DNA of 64,000 bases from the NCBI GenBank assembly GCA_965217775.1, contig CBDCJH010000001.1, forward strand, positions 80,269-144,268, written 5' to 3'. Shown in pieces: positions 1-60,013 of this stretch; within the stretch, counting starts at the first letter, position 1; every line of letters begins with the position of its first letter. The DNA is from Acidobacteriota bacterium. Its GTDB lineage: Bacteria > Acidobacteriota > UBA6911 > RPQK01 > JAJDTT01. The position numbers and the translations under genes were made by a program. The notes beneath the pieces are model-generated. The model was not told where the DNA came from, did no database searches, and saw nothing but the letters and a program-made list of their open reading frames with translations.

Positions 1-592
1 GCAGATAGAGCAGGTTGCCGGCGCCCGGACGGCGGCTTCTTCGAGGCTCCGACGGGACGGCAGCCCCGCTGAGAGTGACTTCCGCATCCCGGGCAATCAC
101 CCCGGCAATCGTGAGCGCGCCCCTGGCCAAGCCACCCCCATGGCGCCCGTGGCGGAAATCCGGCATCACCGCCTGGTCCAGAATGCGTCCCACCAACGCG
201 TCCGGAAGGAGTCCTTCCAAACCGTAACCGACTTCAATCCAGATCTTGCGATCCTCCAGCGAGGTGAGGATCAGAACACCGTTGTCCTTGCCTTTCCGTC
301 CCACTCCCCAGCGCTCGAAGAGCCGATTGGCGAAGTCCCGGATCTCTCCTCCCTTCAGCGACCGGAGAGTGACCACCGCAATCTGAGCCGACGTCTTCTG
401 CTCCAGTTCCCTGAGCCGAACCTCCAGTGACCGCCTCAGATTGGCGTCCATCACGCCCGCGTAGTCGCTGACGTAACCCTGGGGCTTCAGACTCTCCAGC
501 AGGGTGTCCGGCTCGACCTGGGCCTGGGATTGACTGCCCAGCAGGAGGAGCAGGGGCACCAGCAACCAACGGCTCGTTCTCACGGGCTCCAT
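1..592 (-). CDS. TPM domain (YgcG-like) protein, 3' end outside the window
   Basis: Manual translation from ATG at 592: signal peptide, then GYVSDYAGVM..LEQKTSAQIAVVT..FERWGVGRKGKDNGVLIL..RKIWIEVGYGLEGLLPD, the typical TPM signature. Not in the ORF track because it runs off the edge. Confidence 0.85.
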   Translation of the reverse strand, partial: MEPVRTSRWLLVPLLLLLGSQSQAQVEPDTLLESLKPQGYVSDYAGVMDANLRRSLEVRLRELEQKTSAQIAVVTLRSLKGGEIRDFANRLFERWGVGRKGKDNGVLILTSLEDRKIWIEVGYGLEGLLPDALVGRILDQAVMPDFRHGRHGGGLARGALTIAGVIARDAEVTLSGAAVPSEPRRSRRPGAGNLLYL

Positions 593-675: not shown

Positions 676-2993
676 TCAGAGCCGGATCCGCCGCAATCTC
701 AAGGCGTTGGCGATCACCGAGAGAGAGCTGAGAGCCATGGCCGCGGCGGCCAGCATGGGGTTCAGCGTGACTCCCCAGAGAGGATACAGGACCCCGGCCG
801 CTACCGGAACACCCAACATGTTGTAAAGAAAAGCTAAAAACAGATTTTGGCGAATGTTTCGCAGCGTCGCCCGGCTCAATCGGAGAGCTCGAAGAATGCC
901 TTTCAGATCCCCCCGAACCAGGGTCACCCCGGCACTCTTGAGGGCGATGTCGGATCCCGTGCCCATGGCGATGCCCACCTGGGCCAAGGCCAGGGCCGGG
1001 GCGTCGTTGACGCCATCCCCCGCCATGGCCACGATCCGGCCCTCCTCCTGGTACCTATGAATCAGACTCGCCTTCTCGTCGGGCAACATCTCCGACCGGA
1101 CCCGTTCGATCCCCAGCTCACTCGCCACCGCGTCGGCCGTGGTCCGGCCGTCGCCGGTGAGCATGACGATCCTGAGGTCTTGGATCCTCAACTGCGCCAG
1201 AGTCTCCCGGGCGGACGCCTTGACCGGGTCACCCAGACCCAAAACGCCGGAGCTACGCCCGTCGACGGCCACGAAGAAGGCCGTCAGCCCGCGGTGGCGC
1301 AACTCTTCCGCCTGCTGATCCAGATCCCCCACCCGGACGGACAGACCCGCCAGGAAACGCCGGTTGCCCACCGCCACATCCCGGCCCTCCACCTTTCCCC
1401 GGACCCCCTGTCCGGCCACGGAATCGAAGCGTTTCACGGAAGGTAACTCCAGACCCTCCCGACGCGCTCCATCAACCACGGCCCCGGCCAGGGGATGCTC
1501 ACTCCCCTGTTCGACGCCGGCGGCGAGTCTCAGGATCTCCTCACGCTTCCATCCGGCGGCCGGAAGCACGGCCTGAAGCCGGGGTCTCCCTTCGGTGAGA
1601 GTGCCCGTCTTGTCGACCATCAGGGTATCCACGCGCTCCAGGACTTCCAGCGATTCGGCGTCGCGAATCAGGACCCCCGATCGGGCCCCCTCCCCCACCC
1701 CCACCATGATGGACATGGGAGTGGCCAGACCGAGGGCGCAGGGACACGCGATCAGCAATACCGCTGCCGCCGTGACGAGCGCGTTGGCCCACCTGGGTTC
1801 CGGTCCCAGCAGTCCCCACGTCACTGCCGCCGCCACCGCCACCAGAATGACCCCGGGTACGAACCACGCCGCCACCCGGTCCACCAAGCGGTGGACGGGC
1901 GCCCGGGAGCGTTGGGCTTCGGTGACCATCCGGACGATACGGGCCAAAAGGGTCTCGGTCCCGACCCGGCGAGCCTCCATGACGAGCGTACCGGAACCGT
2001 TCGCCGTCCCGCCCGTCACCGAGTCTCCCGGTTGTTTCATGACCGGGATGGACTCGCCGCTGATCATGGACTCGTCGACGCTGCTCTCTCCCTCCAGCAC
2101 CCGGCCGTCCACCGGGACCTTGTCCCCCGGGCGCACTCGCAGCCGATCGCCCGGCTGCACGTCCCCCAAAGGCACCACTTCTTCGCCTCCGGCGACGATC
2201 TTCCGGGCGGTGGGCGGAGACAGTTCCAGCAGGGACCGGATGGCGCTGCCGGTACGCGCCCTGGCTCTGAGCTCCAGGACCTGCCCCAGAAGGACCAGGG
2301 TCGTGATGACGGCGGCCGCCTCGAAATAGACGCCCACCTGACCGAGGCTGTCCCGATAGACATCCGGAAAAGATTTTGGAAACCCGACGGCCGCCAAGCT
2401 GTAGACGTAGGCTGCGCCCGTGCCCAGGGCAATCAGCGTGAACATGTTCAGGCTGCGATTCAGAATGGAGGCCCAGGCTCTCTGCCAGAAGGGGAGCCCT
2501 CCCCAGATCACCACGGGCGTGGCCAGCAGCAGCTCGATCCACTGGCGGAGCGTCGGAGTCAAGGTCCCGGAGATCGGACGTCCCGGCGCCATATCCAACA
2601 TGGACAGCAGAAAAAGGGGAACGGTGAAACCGAGACTCCAGCGGAAACGCCGGGTCATTTCCCGCAATTCTCCGTCGTCGTCTCCTGCCGCCGGGTCGTA
2701 CGGCTGCAAAGCCATGCCACATGAGGGACACGACCCTGGTGTCGGCGACTCGACGCCGGGACACATGGGGCAGACGTAAGCGAAGGCGTCCCCATGGTCC
2801 CGGACCTGGTCCTCGGAAGGGTCCCCTCCCTGGTGCGCAAGGGCGAGTTCCGGATCGGACCGGAACAAATCGGCGCAGTGTGAGCAGCAAAAGTAGTACC
2901 TGGTTCCCCGGTGGGCGACGGTGACGGTGTCGGGTCCGGGAGTCACCGTCATCCCGCAAACCGGATCGATTTCACGCTGCTCGGACGAGGGGC

Positions 2994-2997
<4 letters not shown>
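676..2997 (-). CDS. copA: Heavy-metal (Cu+/Ag+) translocating P1B-type ATPase with YHS and metal-binding N-terminal domains
   Basis: DPVCGM..YYFCC (YHS), [34 protein letters not shown] and MALSS motifs. Confidence 0.92.
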
Positions 2998-4078
<1,081 letters not shown>

Positions 4079-49229: not shown

Positions 49230-49302
49230 TGCCGGGGGACGGAATCGAACCGCCGACACGGGGATTTTCAGTCCCCTGCTCTACCGACTGAGCTACCCCG
49301 GC
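49230..49302 (-). tRNA. tRNA-Phe (GAA)
   Basis: GCCGGGGTAGCTCAGTCGGTAGAGCAGGGGACTGAAAATCCCCGTGTCGGCGGTTCGATTCCGTCCCCCGGCA; followed by CCC rather than CCA. Confidence 0.97.
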
Positions 49303-53680: not shown

Positions 53681-54499
53681 CTATCGGAGCAGGTCTTCGA
53701 GTTGGACCGACCCCTCGGTTTTCGGATCCCGGTATTTGACGATCACCGGAGCATAGAGGGACAGGCCGTGTTGTTTCCCGAAGCCTTTTTGTACGGGCCG
53801 GGATCCGGGCACCACCACGGCGCCGGGAGGAATCTTGAGAGGAGCACCGGGCGCGGACCGGTATACGGTCTCATGGACCAGATCGTAGACCGGCGTCGAG
53901 CCCGTCAGAATGACTCCGGCGGCCAGAACCGCTTCCTGCCCGACGATGGTCCCCTCGTAGACACCGGTATTGCCGCCCACCAGGGCGTCGTCCTCCACGA
54001 TCACCGGCAGAGCCCCCACCGGCTCCAGCACGCCGCCGATCTGGCATCCGGCGCTGAGGTGCACCCGCTTCCCGATCTGGGCACAGGATCCGACCAGGGC
54101 ATGGGAATCGACCATGGTCCCCTCGTCCACATAGGCGCCGGCGTTGATGTACATGGGAGGCATGCAGGTCACGCCCGCGGCCACATGGCAACCGCGGCGG
54201 ATCGACGAGCCCCCCGGCACGATCCGGACACCCGAGGAGAGCGAGAACCGCTTCAGGGGAAACGTGTCCTTGTCGAAGTATCGGAACCCGTCATTGATGG
54301 AGACGTCGCTGAGAACCCCCATCCGGAAGCCCGCGAGAATGCCCTTCTTGACCCAGCCGTTGACTCTCCATTCACCGTCCACCTTCTCGGCCGCCCGAAC
54401 CCGTCCCGAATCCAGGTCGTCCAGGAAGGCGTCCAGGGTGACTCGATCCTGCGGAGTGAATTCCTCGGCTTCGAAAAGGCGCTCAATGGCTTGGGACAT
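53681..54499 (-). CDS. dapD: Tetrahydrodipicolinate N-succinyltransferase
   Basis: [41 protein letters not shown]. Confidence 0.95.
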
Positions 54500-55379
54500 G
54501 GCACAACTCGAGGCGGTCCAGCTCCCGGTCCATCTTCTCCTTGTTTCCCGCGGCCAGGGGGCAGAGGGGCAATCGATAGGACTCGGTCAGGCGGCCCATT
54601 CGGGACAAGGCGTATTTGACCGGTATGGGGTTGGACTCCACAAAATTGAGGTTCATGAGGTGGAGATAACGATGGTGCAAGGCGCGCGCCTCGGCCAGCT
54701 CTCCCTCCCGGACCAGCGCCATCAATCGGGACATCTCCGCCGGGATCACGTTGCTGGCCACGGAGATGACTCCTTCCGCGCCCAGGCAGGCCATGGGAAA
54801 GGCCAGGCTGTCATCGCCCGAGAAGACCATGAACCCTTCGGGCCGCCGCCTCAGCAGATCCATGATCTGATCCAGATTCCCGCTGGCTTCCTTGACTCCC
54901 ACGATGTTGTCCACTCCGGCCAGGCGAAGCTGCGTATCCACCGGAATGTTGGTGCCGGTCCTTCCCGGGACGTTGTAGAACACCAGGGGGATGTCCAGGT
55001 AACGGACGACTTCGGAAAAATGCCGGAAAATTCCCTCGGGGGTCGGCTTGTTGTAATAGGGAGTCACCGAGAGGATGGCGTCCGCGCCTTCATGCTCAGC
55101 GCCCTGCGCCAGTTGGCGAGCGTAAAGGGTGTCGTTGGACCCCGCTCCGGCCACCACCGGAACCGCTCCCGAGGCCGTCTCCACACAGATCTGAATGACG
55201 TATGCATACTCCTCCTCAGTCAGGGTGACGCTCTCGCCGGTGGTCCCGCAGGGCACCAGAAAGTCGATTCCCGATTCGATCTGCCACTCCACCAACTTGC
55301 GGTAGGCGTCCACATCCACGTCACGGTGAGACGTGAAGGGGGTGACCAGGGCGGTTCCACAGCCTTTCAGTTCAATCAT
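54483..55379 (-). CDS. dapA: 4-hydroxy-tetrahydrodipicolinate synthase
   Basis: [42 protein letters not shown]. Confidence 0.96.
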
Positions 55380-56070
55380 TTTGCTCTCCGAAAACGGCAT
55401 CCTCGAATGCGTGGAAGCCCTGCTTGCCCTGGATCCACCGGCCGGCAAAGAGAGCGCCACGGGCGAACCCGCCGCGGCTGCGAGCCTGGTGCTCCAGCGT
55501 GATGGTATCCACCGCCGAGTCGAAACCGGCGACGTGAATTCCGGGGAAATGTCCCGCCCGGACGCTGACGGCGTTGACGGCGCGACCGTAACACTCACCC
55601 AGGATCTTCTCCATGGTGAAGGCGGTGCCCGACGGCGCGTCCAGCTTCCGGACGTGGTGGGTCTCCACCAGGTAGGGGTGGTATTCCTCGAACCTGGAGA
55701 ACATCTCACCCGCGCGGCGGGTCAACCGAAAGAAGATCTGCACGCCCAGGCTGAAGTTGCCCGCGTAGACGCACGCGCCGCCGCCCCGGATCACCGAGTC
55801 CCGGACCTTGTCGATCTGGTCGTACCACCCGGTCGTCCCGACGACGATGGGAATCCCGCAACGGACGGCATTCACCACGTTCATTGGAACGATGTGCGCC
55901 GTCGAGAAATCCATGATGACGTCCGTCCGGGCGACCCAATCGCCCGAGAAACCCGCCTCCAACGGGTTCTCGTCGATATCCATCCAGGAGACGATCTCGT
56001 CTCCCGCCTCTTGTGCGGCCGCCTCGATGGCCCTCCCCATCTTTCCGTAGCCGATCAACGTGATGTTCAT
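55372..56070 (-). CDS. dapB: 4-hydroxy-tetrahydrodipicolinate reductase
   Basis: IGYGKMG, VGTTGW, NFSLGV, ETHHVRKLDAPSGTA, FARGA. Confidence 0.95.
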   Translation of the reverse strand: MNITLIGYGKMGRAIEAAAQEAGDEIVSWMDIDENPLEAGFSGDWVARTDVIMDFSTAHIVPMNVVNAVRCGIPIVVGTTGWYDQIDKVRDSVIRGGGACVYAGNFSLGVQIFFRLTRRAGEMFSRFEEYHPYLVETHHVRKLDAPSGTAFTMEKILGECYGRAVNAVSVRAGHFPGIHVAGFDSAVDTITLEHQARSRGGFARGALFAGRWIQGKQGFHAFEDAVFGEQND

Positions 56071-56123
56071 GTCCACCCCGGACTTTCTCGAAAGTCAATG
56101 GACGCCGGAACCGCGACCCGCCC

Positions 56124-57506
56124 TTAGTTGACGGACTCGAACAACTCCGGGTCCGGCTGCCGGAAAAACTCATTGTGGAGTAGCCGGACGGCCTCCTCCA
56201 TTGTGTCTTCCGCAACCAGAAATGTCATGTTGATCCGCGACGCCCCTTGGGAGATCATTTGAACGTTGATCCCCTCCAGAGCCCCGAAGATCCGCGACGC
56301 GATCCCGGGGGTTTCCTTCACGTCCTCGCCCACGGTGCAGATGATGGCCATGTCGGGCGCCACCCGGATCTCGCCGAACTCCGCCAGATCGCTGCCGATC
56401 GCCTCCAGCTCCTGCGAGGAATCGACCGTCAGGGAGACGTTGACCTCGGAAGTGGCCACCACGTCCACCACCGTTTCGTGAGTCTCGAACACCTCGAAGA
56501 TCCGGCGCAGGAAGCCGTAAGAGAGCAGCATCTGGGTGGACAGGATGTTGACGATGGTGATGCCCCGCTTGCAGGCAATGGACTTGATGGGACTGGAGGA
56601 GGAGACGGGGGCCGCGGAAATGAAGGTCCCCGGCTGGTCGATCTGCCTGGAGTTGCAGACGTGCACGGGGATGTCCCGGTTGATGGCCGGCGTCAGCGTG
56701 CTGGGATGGAGCACCTTGGCCCCGAAGTAGGCCAACTCGGCTGCTTCCGCGAAGGAGATGGCGCGAATCTTGTAGACGTCCGGAACGATCCGGGGGTCCG
56801 CGGTGAGAACACCCGGAACATCGGTCCAGATCTGGATGTCCTCGGCATCCAGCGCGGCTCCGATCAGGGAGGCCGTGTAATCGGACCCTCCGCGCCCGAT
56901 GGTGGTCGTGACCCCGTCTACCGTGGAGCCGATGAAGCCCGGCGCGACGACCACTTTTCCCGCCCGCAGCCGAGGCAGGAGCTGTTCCCGGACGCAACTC
57001 CGGGTGAGTTCCTGCAAGACGGCGGCCTTGGTGAAGTGGTCGTCGGTTCGGATCAGATCTCGTGAGTCGACCAACTCGGCAGGGATTCCGTTTTCCCTGA
57101 GGACTTCAGAGAAAATCAGCGTACTCAAGCGTTCGCCGAAGGACCCGACACGGTCCATGCTCCGGGGACTGGTCTCGCCCAGAAGATAGAGTCCCTGCAC
57201 GATATCGGTCATCTCCTGGAAGAGGGCCGCCAGCGACGTTTCCACACTCTTCCAGCGGGGGCCCGAGAGGAGCTCCCGCGCCACCGTCTCATGCAACGCG
57301 CTCAGGTCGTCCCTTGTCGCCCACGCGGAATCGATATCCCCGGACGAGGCGGTTCGAGCCATCTCCAGCAGGCCATTGGTGGTCTTGCCCATGGCGGACA
57401 AGACCACGACCTCGCCCCGGGACAATTGGCGCCGGATCACCTGGACGGCCCGCGTCACCGCGTCCGTGCCTTGAACTGACGTCCCGCCGAACTTGAGAAC
57501 GATCAC
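56124..57506 (-). CDS. lysC: Aspartate kinase
   Basis: VLKFGGTSV, GERLS, TTIGRGGSD, WTDVPG..ADPR, GAKVLHP, ACT domains. Confidence 0.96.
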   Translation of the reverse strand: MIVLKFGGTSVQGTDAVTRAVQVIRRQLSRGEVVVLSAMGKTTNGLLEMARTASSGDIDSAWATRDDLSALHETVARELLSGPRWKSVETSLAALFQEMTDIVQGLYLLGETSPRSMDRVGSFGERLSTLIFSEVLRENGIPAELVDSRDLIRTDDHFTKAAVLQELTRSCVREQLLPRLRAGKVVVAPGFIGSTVDGVTTTIGRGGSDYTASLIGAALDAEDIQIWTDVPGVLTADPRIVPDVYKIRAISFAEAAELAYFGAKVLHPSTLTPAINRDIPVHVCNSRQIDQPGTFISAAPVSSSSPIKSIACKRGITIVNILSTQMLLSYGFLRRIFEVFETHETVVDVVATSEVNVSLTVDSSQELEAIGSDLAEFGEIRVAPDMAIICTVGEDVKETPGIASRIFGALEGINVQMISQGASRINMTFLVAEDTMEEAVRLLHNEFFRQPDPELFESVN

Positions 57507-57676
57507 AGCTTCATCTCACGCGATTTCGAGAAACCGTAATATACCCCGAATCCGTCACGGGAGATCCAACGATTACTCTAACGGCGACGACGGAAAAAGA
57601 ACGGAATGGCCCGCAGCAAGTCAACACTCACTGCACGGGAAGGAACCCATGGTGCCTGGGAATAAGCACCGGGAAG

Positions 57677-57694
57677 AAAAAAAAGTGTCCCAAG
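57677..57694 (-). terminator. 3' end of the candidate ncRNA: closing stem strand plus U8 tract
   Basis: Minus strand CTTGGGACAC-TTTTTTTT. Confidence 0.6.
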
Positions 57695-58154
57695 TGATAT
57701 TCGCTCGTTGCACTGCCTCGGAAGGCACTGTCTCCCGACCCGAATGGGGCCAGTTTCCGTGCCCCCAAGTGGAGCATCTGCCGCCGTGTTCGACCAAGTC
57801 CCGAAGGAACCTGCCCTTGCCCCTGACGACTTCCGCTCCTCTCCAGGGGGGCCGTCCTTCATTGAGGTTCCCCGGTAACAACCGGTTCACGCCAATCCGA
57901 AGCAACCCGCCGCCCTGGAGCCGCACCCCCGAAAGCAGCCTCTGAACACCCGCCTTCGCTACCCTCGCCCGAAGGCTCCGGCAGATCCGGCGCGCCTCTT
58001 CGGCGCTTGCCCCTCAATCGATCAAAACCGGCTGAGGAACTCGCCCGCCCGCCACTGGCCGCCTCCCCACCTTCAAGGCCGAAACCCTGGAGCCGGATCG
58101 ACCGCTTGCGACCGGCGCCGCCTCGGGGCCAACTTGCGTTTACCCCTTGGGACA
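57686..58154 (-). ncRNA. Candidate large (~470 nt) structured non-coding RNA, family unrecognised
   Basis: 5' UGUCCCAAG pairs with 3' CUUGGGACA; promoter directly upstream; U8 directly downstream; many UUCG/GNRA hairpins; no credible ORF. Confidence 0.7.
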
Positions 58155-58160
58155 AGGGAG

Positions 58161-58188
58161 ATTCTATGCCTTTCTCCGAACTGCGCAA
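58161..58188 (-). promoter_or_regulatory. Sigma70-like promoter of the candidate ncRNA
   Basis: TTGCGC-N16-TAGAAT; predicted start ~58154 coincides with the first base of the terminal stem. Confidence 0.65.
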
Positions 58189-58222
58189 CCAGAAATTTCA
58201 CCAAGAAATTGAGCCTTTTCCT

Positions 58223-58308
58223 TGTGGATTTCGGCTGCAAGACCCTATCCGCAATAGCAACTTCACTTATGGTTCATACAGTCACAATTTATCCACACCT
58301 TGTCCACA
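58223..58308. promoter_or_regulatory. DnaA-box cluster in an AT-rich intergenic patch
   Basis: TTATCCACA (58289-58297), TTGTCCACA (58300-58308), degenerate TGTGGATTT (58223) and CTATCCGCA (58245). Confidence 0.5.
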
Positions 58309-58656
58309 TGCCTTTGAAATCGCCCCCCAAACCCATCCTCGCAGTTTTTTTCAGGGACATCTTCCCAAGACAACATTATACCGATATGGTTGTTTTAAAT
58401 TCCGACTTTTTCTTCCTGGACCCCTGACAAAAAATTGACGATGCCATTTTCAGACACGCCTCATGTATGAAATGGAGTCCGCGAAACATCGCGGATTCGA
58501 TATCGGCGGGCTGGCGGACGCTCGTGGGTATACTCGACATCTTCTGGTGGTATCCGGGGAACCCCGGGGCGGATGGCGGGTTGATGCGTCGCGGATAGTA
58601 TCGTCGATCCATTCGAACCGGGTGCGTGACCCGCTGTACGAGAGCGCAGGCGCAAC

Positions 58657-59121
58657 GTGGAAGACCGACCGAATCGCATCGTCTCGGGAGGACAAACGGG
58701 AGTCGACCGGGCGGCTCTGGACGTGGCTCTGGAGCTTTCGCTCGATTGCGGCGGCTGGTGCCCGAGGGGCCGCCGCGCCGAGGACGGTCCTCTCGATCCC
58801 CGCTATCCGCTCCGGGAGACGCCTCTCCGTCGATACCACCAGAGAACCGACTGGAACGTTCGAGATTCGAACGGGACTCTCATCCTGTTCCGGACCCGAG
58901 TGGACGGCGGCACCCGGCTCACCTGGGTCCGAGCCCGGCGCCGAGGGCGGCCCTGCCGGCGGGTGGACCTGGACCAGGATCCCGGAACCGAACCGGTCAT
59001 GGAATGGATCCGGCGGCACCGGATCCGGGTTTTGAACGTGGCGGGTCCCCGGGAGAGCTCCAGTCCTGGCGTCTACGACCGGGCCAGGGCGTTTCTACTC
59101 AGACTGCTGGGGAACCTTTGA
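58657..59121 (+). CDS. SLOG-family (YpsA-like, putative molybdenum carrier) protein
   Basis: IVSGGQTGVDRAALD, GGWCPRGRRAEDG, RT.WNVRDS.GT, LNVAGPRES. Confidence 0.88.
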   Translation: MEDRPNRIVSGGQTGVDRAALDVALELSLDCGGWCPRGRRAEDGPLDPRYPLRETPLRRYHQRTDWNVRDSNGTLILFRTRVDGGTRLTWVRARRRGRPCRRVDLDQDPGTEPVMEWIRRHRIRVLNVAGPRESSSPGVYDRARAFLLRLLGNL

Positions 59122-60013
59122 CGGGGAAGAGCCGCTCGAAGTTGGCGGACTGAATCTTGCGGCGGCCGTCCCGGTCCAAGCCAACTTGCTTCAAGATCCG
59201 GGACTGCGCTTCCCAGAGCGGGCTTTGCCAGCCCCGCGGAAAGAATGAAGAGTCGGTTCCAAACAGAATCCGGTCCGGACCCAGGATCTCGAGGGAGCGG
59301 GCGAAGACCTGCTCCAGGGTCAACCCGGAGTATCGAATCCAGGAATTGGAGCTGGACGTGTCCAGATGGACGTTGGGACAGAGATCTCCCAGCATGAGGG
59401 CCTCGCGGAACATCCCGGCCCCAAAGTGAGGGAGAATGAACGGCAGATTGGGCCAAGCCAGCGCCAACGGATGAACGTTCAAGGGATTCGAATATCTGAG
59501 GTCGAATCGGGCCGGCAATCCCAGCTTCTTCCGGGCCCCCACCGTCAGTACGCCACAATGAATGAAGAGCGCGGTGCCGGGCACGGACGCCACCCGCTCG
59601 ACCAGGCGAAGCACCCGCGGGTCCGAGAGTTCATACCCGTGCATTCCGGGGAACAGACAGGCACAACGGAGCCCCAGCTCGGTGACCGCCCGGGTCACCC
59701 GTTCCGCGGCCGCCTGCCGCGTCGGGTCCACCATGAAGAAGCCGACAAAGCGTCCCGGATGCCGGTCCACGGCTGCCGCCACCGACTCTTCGTCTTCCGG
59801 GACGCTGGCGATGATCGCCGCCCGGCCGACCTGGTGGCGATCCAACTCCGCAACCCAACGGTCCGCCAACTCCCCGCTGGAGCCGGGCGGATCCCATGCC
59901 AGGATTCGGCAGGCGTCGCCCACGGGGTCGTCCCCCCGGATTCCTCTTTCACCAGCCAGCGTCCGGATAAAGTTCCGGGAGAAGAAATGGCAATGCGCGT
60001 CATTCGGTTTCAT
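59099..60013 (-). CDS. Amidohydrolase family 2 protein
   Basis: DAHCH, FIHCG, PHFGAG, NVHLDTS, RILFGTDS. Confidence 0.88.
   Translation of the reverse strand: MKPNDAHCHFFSRNFIRTLAGERGIRGDDPVGDACRILAWDPPGSSGELADRWVAELDRHQVGRAAIIASVPEDEESVAAAVDRHPGRFVGFFMVDPTRQAAAERVTRAVTELGLRCACLFPGMHGYELSDPRVLRLVERVASVPGTALFIHCGVLTVGARKKLGLPARFDLRYSNPLNVHPLALAWPNLPFILPHFGAGMFREALMLGDLCPNVHLDTSSSNSWIRYSGLTLEQVFARSLEILGPDRILFGTDSSFFPRGWQSPLWEAQSRILKQVGLDRDGRRKIQSANFERLFPVKGSPAV

Follow-up and report, generated by a model that had tools for sequence, protein, structure and literature searches.

The DNA analyzed here is a stretch of 64,000 nucleotides (nt) from an Acidobacteriota bacterium, referred to as the window, and our subject is a gene on its minus strand, at 57677-58154, that specifies a structured RNA of 478 nt, including a terminal tract of eight U residues (U8). 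An initial annotation, made from the letters alone, had proposed at this place an undescribed, highly structured, stand-alone RNA of ~470 nt, and every sequence element that it listed was found again, on re-reading, at the minus-strand position it had given. By combining sequence, folding, relatives, and contigs from RNA libraries, we show that 58154-57677 is an independently promoted, strongly structured noncoding gene, with a family that is order specific in the genomes searched and absent from Rfam. For a structured RNA gene that is both real and novel, we put the probability at roughly 0.9. Throughout, nt i of the RNA is window position 58155 - i, and all features of the RNA described below lie on the minus strand.

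The gene is preceded by a promoter of the sigma-70 type, in which a -35-like hexamer, TTGCGC (58188-58183), is separated by a 16-nt spacer from the -10 hexamer TAGAAT (58166-58161), six bases before UGUCCCAAG (58154-58146). The predicted start of transcription falls on the first bases of UGUCCCAAG. With a score of 8 out of 12 and a threshold of 9, this promoter is not called by a simple promoter scan. The 5' end UGUCCCAAG is the exact complement of CUUGGGACA (57694-57686), as had been noted initially, and CUUGGGACA is followed by a C and the U8 tract (57677-57684), which together with the closing stem makes an end resembling an intrinsic terminator.

Downstream, across a gap of 170 nt in which a simple scan finds a weak terminator-like site (57614-57601), lies a same-strand gene for a lysC-like aspartate kinase (56124-57506, minus strand; Pfam AA_kinase and ACT). 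It is followed by dapB (56076-55372, minus strand; Pfam DapB_N/C) and then by a minus-strand gene of the DHDPS family (Pfam DHDPS), and the three form a consecutive row on the same strand at 54486-57506. The longest frame of the DHDPS-family gene, of 408 amino acids, overlaps dapB, and the domain begins at residue 114; the true start is probably later than that of this frame. Upstream of the RNA, at 58450-59035, two overlapping frames of ~190 amino acids run on opposite strands, both lacking a Pfam match.

Known RNA families and relatives

A search of the 64-kb window with the 4227 covariance models of Rfam 15 at the gathering score returned nothing at the RNA locus; the sole match in the window was a tRNA gene at 49230-49302 (minus strand, 71.5 bits). 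When the threshold was relaxed to E<=10 over 57300-58600, only a chance match of 12.8 bits to Guanidine-III appeared, at 57325-57363, beyond the RNA and on the opposite strand. Eighteen diverse member loci of the family described below likewise matched nothing in Rfam 15 at the RNA. One of these loci (L124, in genome G029) carries a group II intron at 1692-3500 on the minus strand (RF01999, 112 bits; RF00029, 60 bits), away from the RNA and ~2 to 4 kb upstream of it. We take Rfam 15 to include OLE, ROOL, GOLLD, raiA, HEARO, Acido-1, Acido-Lenti-1, T-box, and ribozymes. The absence of any family match, at either threshold and in the diverse members, supports the novelty that the initial annotation had left to be verified.

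A divergent housekeeping RNA is ruled out, as the genome's RNase P (291 bits), 6S (54 bits), transfer-messenger RNA (tmRNA; 190 bits), and signal recognition particle (SRP) RNA (66 bits) are all found elsewhere, above their cutoffs, on contig C2, in agreement with the earlier view that the RNA is none of these four. A full-text literature search, with supplementary files, which might list candidate motifs, lying outside it, gave no description of the RNA family. In the main text of PMC11109978, neither Acidobacteria nor lysC, asd, or aspartate kinase comes up.

Searches with the RNA and its ends, across Acidobacteriota and beyond, recovered a family of relatives. A BLAST search of 41 related genomes with the 478-nt sequence gave full-length copies in all 8 of the other genomes of the same genus, at 87 to 94% identity, and elsewhere end-only matches in the sister genus and three other families. 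These end-only loci hold RNAs of similar size, which share UGUCCCAAGGGGUAGAC at the 5' end and, before a U run, GCGAAUAUCACUUGGGAC at the 3' end; a promoter closely precedes them. An exact 23-nt pattern from the 3' end was then scanned through three collections. Among 185,579 species genomes it was present at 34 loci, of which 33 are titled Acidobacteria or Acidobacteriota and 1 Candidatus Aminicenantes; GTCCCAAGGGGT lies 240 to 700 nt upstream at 31 of the 34, and the remaining three are one truncated copy and two copies cut by contig ends. Metagenome contigs yielded 13 loci (8 with the 5' motif), and viral contigs yielded none.

A covariance model of the 3' domain, comprising the last 125 nt and built from 40 sequences, matched 8 of 151 genomes in an even sample of the phylum, all 8 belonging to the window's order. 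Within that order, whose genomes are mostly metagenome assembled, 67 of 76 genomes matched at E<=0.01, among them 45 of the 52 of high quality, and 15 of 16 families were represented. Genomes carry one or two copies, with two lineages having two. An independent 17-nt pattern from the 5' end was checked in 401 genomes of the phylum and gave the same picture: it was present in 25 of 28 sampled genomes of the order, in 0 of 10 from the class's other orders, and in 2 of the ~363 genomes left, and a reversed control pattern gave 8 matches in all. Both end motifs were present at 56 of 59 loci examined.

After removal of duplicates (20 + 1 + 16), the nonredundant family comprises 81 members of 245 to 721 nt, with a median of 457 nt; 66 of the 81 fall between 380 and 500 nt. 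The 254-nt member L017 belongs to a genome flagged unpublished, but has the same sequence as the public record L035. The members come from marine, sediment, and sponge-associated assemblies. Left out were six copies cut by contig ends (L031, L038, L065, L073, L074, and L115) and a truncated copy with the 3' part only (L011, L029, L062, L071, and L096); in the lineage of the latter, what survives is the 3' ~130 nt, complete with U tract and a perfect 3' end, and the sequence upstream is unrelated and lacks the 5' motif. Also left out was L142, a doubtful mini-version of ~100 nt at 270-372 (plus strand) in genome G016, in which GUCCCGAGUGGU pairs with GGUCACUUGGGAC ahead of a U8 and the model match is weak (E of 0.003); it may be a derived paralogue or unrelated.

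The window's own assembly holds a second copy, at G000:C2:5157169-5157645 (L019), which is 99% identical to 57677-58154 and was left out of alignments A1, A2, and A4. The aspartate kinase flanking L019 is ~96% identical in protein, and the contamination of the assembly is estimated at 7.5%; the window's contig of more than 144 kb may come from a closely related, co-binned strain rather than a true duplication. The 5' motif also matches exactly at sites away from known copies, at G002:C1:3610856 (~20 kb from the RNA of that genome), G205:C31:8977, and G025:C89:4190, and these may be additional, diverged copies missed by the 3' model. A further 5' motif lies at G027:C60:4784-4800 in a 2.4-Mb genome without a match to the 3' model, so that the true prevalence in the order may exceed 67 of 76.

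Terminal stem, interior, and alternative pairing

Conservation within the family is concentrated where the two ends of the RNA meet. Pairing was counted from both ends, without an alignment, across the 81 members. Helix P1, formed by nt 2-9 (GUCCCAAG, 58146-58153) and nt 461-468 (CUUGGGAC, 57687-57694, with the U tract afterwards), is invariant in 81 of 81, the only variation being in the partner of U3, which is A in 72 and G in 9. The outermost position, 1:469, is paired in 52 of 81 by five pair types. On the inner side, nt 10 stands opposite A460 (G.A in 66, A.A in 10, G.U in 4, and G.G in 1), and helix P1b follows, in which GGUA (nt 11-14, 58141-58144) faces UAUC (nt 456-459, 57696-57699), the latter within the conserved stretch GAAUAUCAC. 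Its first three positions, nt 11-13 with 459-457, are G-C, G.U, and U-A in 80 to 81 members, and the fourth, 14:456, varies compatibly (A-U in 62, G-C in 18, and another combination in 1).

Next come purine mismatches with A or G at nt 15 and 16 (R15-A16 opposite A454-A455), and then helix P2, with the 5' strand CGCAAG (nt 17-22, 58133-58138) and a 3' strand at nt 448-453 (57702-57707) that is placed by covariation and the consensus fold. The pairs at nt 17 to 19 covary among the 81 members: at nt 17, C-G in 65, A-U in 5, U-A in 2, and G-C in 1; at nt 18, G-C in 56, A-U in 14, and G.U in 6; and at nt 19, C-G in 58, A-U in 7, G-C in 6, and others. The AAC-GCAA-GUU hairpin that the initial annotation had placed here does not hold as the sole fold, as the terminal stem continues through GGUR/YAUC and then a long-range helix, ACGC.../...GCG.

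Folding and covariation extend this structure into the interior. The minimum free energy is -237.2 kcal/mol, compared with -212.2 +/- 6.5 for 100 dinucleotide shuffles (z = -3.85), none of which was as good. Three alignments were examined for pairs changed on both sides, using consensus structures computed by RNAalifold on the same alignments later used for pair counting. For the terminal stem across the family (80 sequences and 16 pairs), 96.4% of cells are paired, against 31 to 45% in slid controls, and 62 cells carry both-side changes, against 17.1 +/- 3.2 when shuffled. For the group D clade (16 sequences, 18 helices, and 130 pairs), the corresponding values are 94.4% against 38 to 53%, with both-side changes in 51 pairs against 29.9 +/- 3.2. 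The 19 sequences of the window's own family (101 pairs) give 94.2% against 35 to 50%, with 42 pairs against 29.9 +/- 2.7. In each of the three, none of 500 shuffles reached the observed number of both-side changes. Interior covariation is reported within these two clades only because family-wide MAFFT alignments of the interior are unreliable. The slid controls, together with the many both-side changes, are a stronger argument for the fold than the shuffles.

In the window's own family, helix 2 of the consensus is P3, in which CCCCGAGGCGGC (nt 27-38, 58117-58128) pairs with GCUGCUUUCGGG (nt 216-227, 57928-57939); 2 of its 10 pairs changed on both sides. Helix 6 is the hairpin at nt 117-144 (58011-58038, with CCUCAG..UUGAGG itself at 58037-58012), with 5 of 10 pairs changed on both sides. 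The sequence further holds the hairpin GCGCC-GAAGA-GGCGC, the hairpin GCC-UUCG-GGC (57976-57967), the CUCCAGGG/CCCUGGAG helix (57920-57913 with 57848-57841), and the hairpin GUUCC-UUCG-GGAC (57810-57798). Near the 3' end, helices 16 and 17 of the consensus make up a module (57723-57764) in which a GGGCAC/GUGCCU helix encloses an internal loop (GGAAA.. / ..GAGACA) and the hairpin CUGGCCC-CAUUC-GGGUCGG (57753-57735). The UGCCU..AGGCA pairing first proposed in this region gives way, on the comparative data, to GUGCC (57728-57724) with GGCAC (57763-57759) around the conserved hairpin.

Outside the ends there is little sequence conservation, and the interior varies in both sequence and length. Across 35 representatives UUCGG occurs 125 times against 39.8 expected, as cUUCGg loops, and AAACC, considered as a candidate repeated protein-binding motif, occurs 51 times against 12.5 expected, yet is absent from 11 of the 35. 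A 5' element, CCCYGAGGCRGCGAC, recurs, as does a 3' module of the form GAAAC-hairpin-GRAG, the latter across most groups. The comparison with OLE, ROOL, and GOLLD drawn in the initial annotation therefore holds for size and ornateness; beyond those, conservation lies in the terminal stem, around an interior of ~200 to 680 nt.

The signals that flank the RNA are kept along with its ends. Among the 80 members with 50 nt available upstream, 76 have TANNNT ending 4 to 9 nt before nt 1 (exactly 6 nt in 62), and 67 have TTG 16 to 18 nt upstream of the -10 element; a T-run also lies at -43 to -39 upstream of the RNA. A run of at least four T residues starts 0 to 1 nt past P1 in 70 of 81. The pattern of change is noncoding, in keeping with the earlier judgment that no frame here looks real: of the distinct indel events in two clade alignments, only 3 of 38 and 3 of 31, respectively, have a length divisible by three, eight single-base indels occur within the genus, and variable columns within the genus are spread evenly over the three codon phases (46/48/45). 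Long open frames occur on both strands at the locus, as expected for GC-rich DNA. Cross-group BLAST of the frame translations was uninformative, with matches arising only from related nucleotides and a tiny database.

A second pairing is available to part of the terminal core. In 76 of 81 members, a 5-nt complement of nt 9-13 (58146-58142) lies around nt 26-31, compared with 19 of 81 for a control window; in the window's RNA, this alternative helix, P1', has the 3' strand GCCCC (nt 26-30, 58125-58129). The GGGG..CCCC pairing of the initial annotation is thus real as an alternative helix. With its P1' complement, nt 10 forms G-C in 70, A-U in 7, G.U in 1, and no pair in 3, and the A-U form is present in at least four separate lineages. 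As P1' uses G9 and G11-U13, it excludes pairing of G9 with C461 and also P1b, in which pair 14:456 covaries as well. Two mutually exclusive partners for nt 9-13, each with covariation, are the sequence signature of a putative switch or pseudoknotted core. A switch would fit a model in which P1' forms first and is displaced as the 3' strand zips P2, then P1b, and then P1. A pseudoknot would fit one in which P1 (nt 2-8) stacks on P1', with P2 leaving from the hairpin loop and the A-rich linker AAUAUCA lying in the groove. For the freed CCCC, the consensus of the window's own family predicts a partner in GGG at nt 225-227, which would make a three-way strand exchange possible.

Candidate modes of action

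Expression was examined in assembled RNA libraries. The run index lists 16 RNA rows belonging to several studies; four of these runs, drawn from three studies, were used over 56500-59300 (the small-share runs X9-X17 were unused), and contigs from all four libraries lie on 57689-58137. RNA-library contigs with the label sponge metagenome cover the RNA. In X1, a 237-nt contig over the RNA has 0 differences and a word depth of 1931, and in X2 a 234-nt contig over it has a word depth of 1232. Contigs of the aspartate kinase gene in X1 and X2 have depths of 2 to 7, and one of these, of 159 nt, has 0 differences, which indicates that a near-identical organism was present in that run. These values are consistent with a transcript of the RNA far more abundant than that of the neighboring gene, with contig depth being a poor measure of expression, the runs having been chosen for holding this RNA, strains being summed, and DNA being possible in RNA libraries. 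From 58192 to 59131 no contig is found in the four runs, and this uncovered stretch carries no evidential weight. Together with the covariation, the contigs support the stand-alone, highly structured RNA that had been proposed.

The closing stack, as read from one end to the other, consists of P1 (8 to 9 bp), a G.A mismatch, the 4-bp P1b, a 2x2 purine loop, and the covarying P2, with the U tract following at once. It can be hypothesized that, as the 3' strand emerges from the polymerase, this stack zips from P2 through P1b to P1 and thereby acts as the RNA's own intrinsic terminator. Termination would then release a discrete, stable, and abundant RNA acting in trans. Function probably resides in the invariant terminal core (nt 2-16 and 454-468), which could serve as a sequence-specific docking platform for a protein or as a tertiary core, and the variable, UUCG-rich interior would be its scaffold. 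The alternative P1' (nt 9-13 with 26-30) might give the core two states, or form a pseudoknot, and so gate folding, termination, or partner binding. We give about even odds to this combination of a self-terminating stack, an invariant core as functional site, and action in trans. Like an intrinsic terminator, the RNA ends in a G+C-rich helix (GUCCCAAG/CUUGGGAC) directly before a U run; it differs in that the helix is closed with the transcript's 5' end 240 to 710 nt upstream, not within a short hairpin, and termination itself is predicted.

Several observations weigh against this trans-acting interpretation or against the evidence for it. A simple terminator scan does not call the 3' end of the RNA, the loop exceeding 8 nt, and a terminator stem that closes a loop of ~450 nt would be unusual. 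Competing pairings such as those of nt 9-13 are, by analogy, the kind of feature seen in regulatory switches. Of the 73 members with enough downstream sequence, 32, from at least eight families, have a co-oriented asd or lysC within the 2.6 kb that follow the RNA, and this adjacency is more persistent than the usual gene order between unrelated genes. RF00168, the model of the lysine riboswitch, matched nowhere in the whole of the organism's own genome. Clustering of neighboring genes gave no conserved adjoining protein gene beyond asd-lysC-dap and a fumarase/aspartase-like gene, and no partner protein or target was found. On the side of the evidence, the expression data are contigs, which cannot show strand, exact ends, or level and which, in the four runs, break off at 58135-58137 (nt 18-20) instead of reaching nt 1. 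Related sequences can also beat shuffles without any structure, and the interior covariation covers two clades only, which were grouped by eye from 5' sequences.

Among the rival explanations, the one that survives best, although we consider it unlikely, is that the RNA is a cis-acting leader of the asd-lysC-dapB-dapA operon for lysine and diaminopimelate. It would then be a giant riboswitch-like element, or an attenuator sensing a protein or tRNA, in which the closing stem terminates transcription and P1' or an effector allows read-through. The recurring arrangement has a fumarase/aspartase-like gene divergently upstream (a fumarase-like gene in 10 of 61 members) and asd, lysC, dapB, dapA, and sometimes dapD downstream on the same strand. 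The core-genome context described initially can thus be made more specific, as a likely ancestral site directly upstream of this operon. The 32 members placed before asd or lysC include the window, one sister-genus copy, group D, and several single-genome families; the genome lacks a lysine riboswitch of its own; the exclusive pairings of nt 9-13 both covary; and a low-depth contig in X1 (6.8) spans 57386-57718, from the interior of the RNA into the aspartate kinase gene.

However, 41 of the 73 members do not have asd or lysC at that position. The next gene is convergent in L020, L021, L041, L143, L072, L082, L132, L145, L141, and L018, and in other members it is an unrelated gene, such as one for an amidase, ThuA, an M16 peptidase, LytB, or LptD; yet members in these contexts keep the invariant ends, the promoter, and the U tract. 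Of the two copies in the sister genus, one stands at the dap operon; the other, at a different site, has a 28-nt 3' end of 100% identity. In G183, G211, G025, and G028, where the RNA is sited elsewhere, the aspartate kinase genes have no model match nearby (best E of 0.12) and are thus without the element. The conserved nucleotides lie in the terminal stem and not in a multihelix junction, the interior length varies threefold, and, with the reservations on contig depth given above, the RNA contigs are hundreds of times deeper than those of lysC. An obligate lysC leader in particular is weakened by the convergent and unrelated contexts and by the element-free aspartate kinase genes of the four genomes. 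It is likely that the asd-lysC-dap adjacency is an ancestral location kept by many lineages and not the purpose of the RNA.

As for the lysine riboswitch (L-box) itself, RF00168 gave no match at the locus, in line with its dismissal in the initial annotation, and did match the controls from E. coli, B. subtilis, T. maritima, and L. lactis. The RNA resembles the L-box in standing directly upstream of lysC, asd, or dap genes in many members and in its terminator-like end; it is 2 to 4 times larger, has no conserved junction core, and retains all of its features when followed by convergent or unrelated genes. Among the named conserved neighbor clusters there was no reverse transcriptase that would suggest a retron, although no search aimed at one was made.

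Elements of both action in trans and control in cis would be combined if a bistable or pseudoknotted core (P1/P1b versus P1') were an active site or sensor that binds an effector, or self-cleaves near nt 17-19, and so decides both the release of a stable, particle-forming RNA and the read-through into asd-lysC-dap. We regard this as a rather doubtful proposition, but if true it would represent a combined trans-acting RNA and transcription switch without a described counterpart.

A further possibility, which we judge improbable, is that of a self-processing RNA, in which the core removes or nicks the first 17 to 19 nt, or of an RNA-only architectural particle as with ROOL, GOLLD, and OLE. The contig stops in four libraries at nt 18-20 border the purine loop, and in two of those contigs, from studies P2 and P3, the sequence continues at the stop as Illumina adapter. 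This is a weak hint of a mature 5' end beside the conserved purine loop, differing from the predicted start, but contigs cannot show RNA ends, and clipping of tips by the assembler at the strain-variable nt 15 (A or G) could have shortened them. Both strands of P1 and P1b are extremely invariant while P2 covaries freely, and the RNA is large, ornate, and UUCG rich. PMC12286853 reports that large ornate bacterial RNAs form homo-oligomers, which would favor assembly. On the other hand, no self-cleaving ribozyme family of Rfam matches at the locus. The RNA shares with OLE, ROOL, GOLLD, and raiA a length of hundreds of nucleotides, many covarying helices, stable tetraloops, restriction to a single lineage, apparent abundance, and its own promoter. 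It differs in having no covariance-model match to any of them, in its occurrence in Acidobacteriota, in its conserved end stem with an interior that varies threefold in length, and in having no known associated protein genes. Compared with 6S RNA, it is likewise an apparently abundant stand-alone RNA whose ends meet in a long closing stem, but it is multibranched and not a rod with a central bubble, and the canonical 6S RNA is encoded elsewhere in the genome.

In Y RNAs, a conserved stem of the 5' and 3' ends and a U-rich tail form the Ro binding site, and the terminal stem here presumably resembles those stems, with a putative likeness to the Ro-binding sequence. An Rsr/Ro60-bound Y-like RNA is nevertheless effectively refuted: the resemblance to Y RNA and YrlA is one of layout only (ends paired in a sequence-conserved stem with internal mismatches, a U-rich tail, and a variable remainder), bacterial Y RNAs are several times shorter than 58154-57677, no Y RNA-type family of Rfam matches, and TROVE (PF05731) was found neither in the organism's own genome (0/1) nor in the order (0/76) while being detected in the controls Deinococcus radiodurans and Bacteroides thetaiotaomicron.

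Hardly any weight is left to the view that this is no RNA gene at all but a miniature inverted-repeat transposable element or insertion sequence remnant with terminal inverted repeats, a small coding gene, or chance GC-rich structure, for, although the ends form an imperfect inverted repeat of ~14 bp and long frames are open on both strands, there are one or two copies per genome (two in the window's own assembly) at syntenic sites, pairs change on both sides throughout, indels are mostly not multiples of three, substitutions show no codon periodicity, the promoter and U tract are kept, viral contigs gave 0 matches, and the G.U pairs that had guided the initial choice of strand fit the minus strand only, with G12.U458 in 80 of 81.

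New classes of large structured bacterial RNA are rare, and RNase P, tmRNA, 6S, OLE, ROOL, GOLLD, and raiA each revealed unexpected biochemistry. The RNA described here is nearly universal across an order of mostly uncultured Acidobacteriota. Its ~30 invariant nucleotides at the paired ends, with two competing pairings, make a compact experimental target, which may turn out to be a protein platform, a switch, or a catalytic core. The family is also of use as an annotation marker, in that a seemingly intergenic gap of ~0.5 kb upstream of lysC or asd in these genomes is a gene to annotate.

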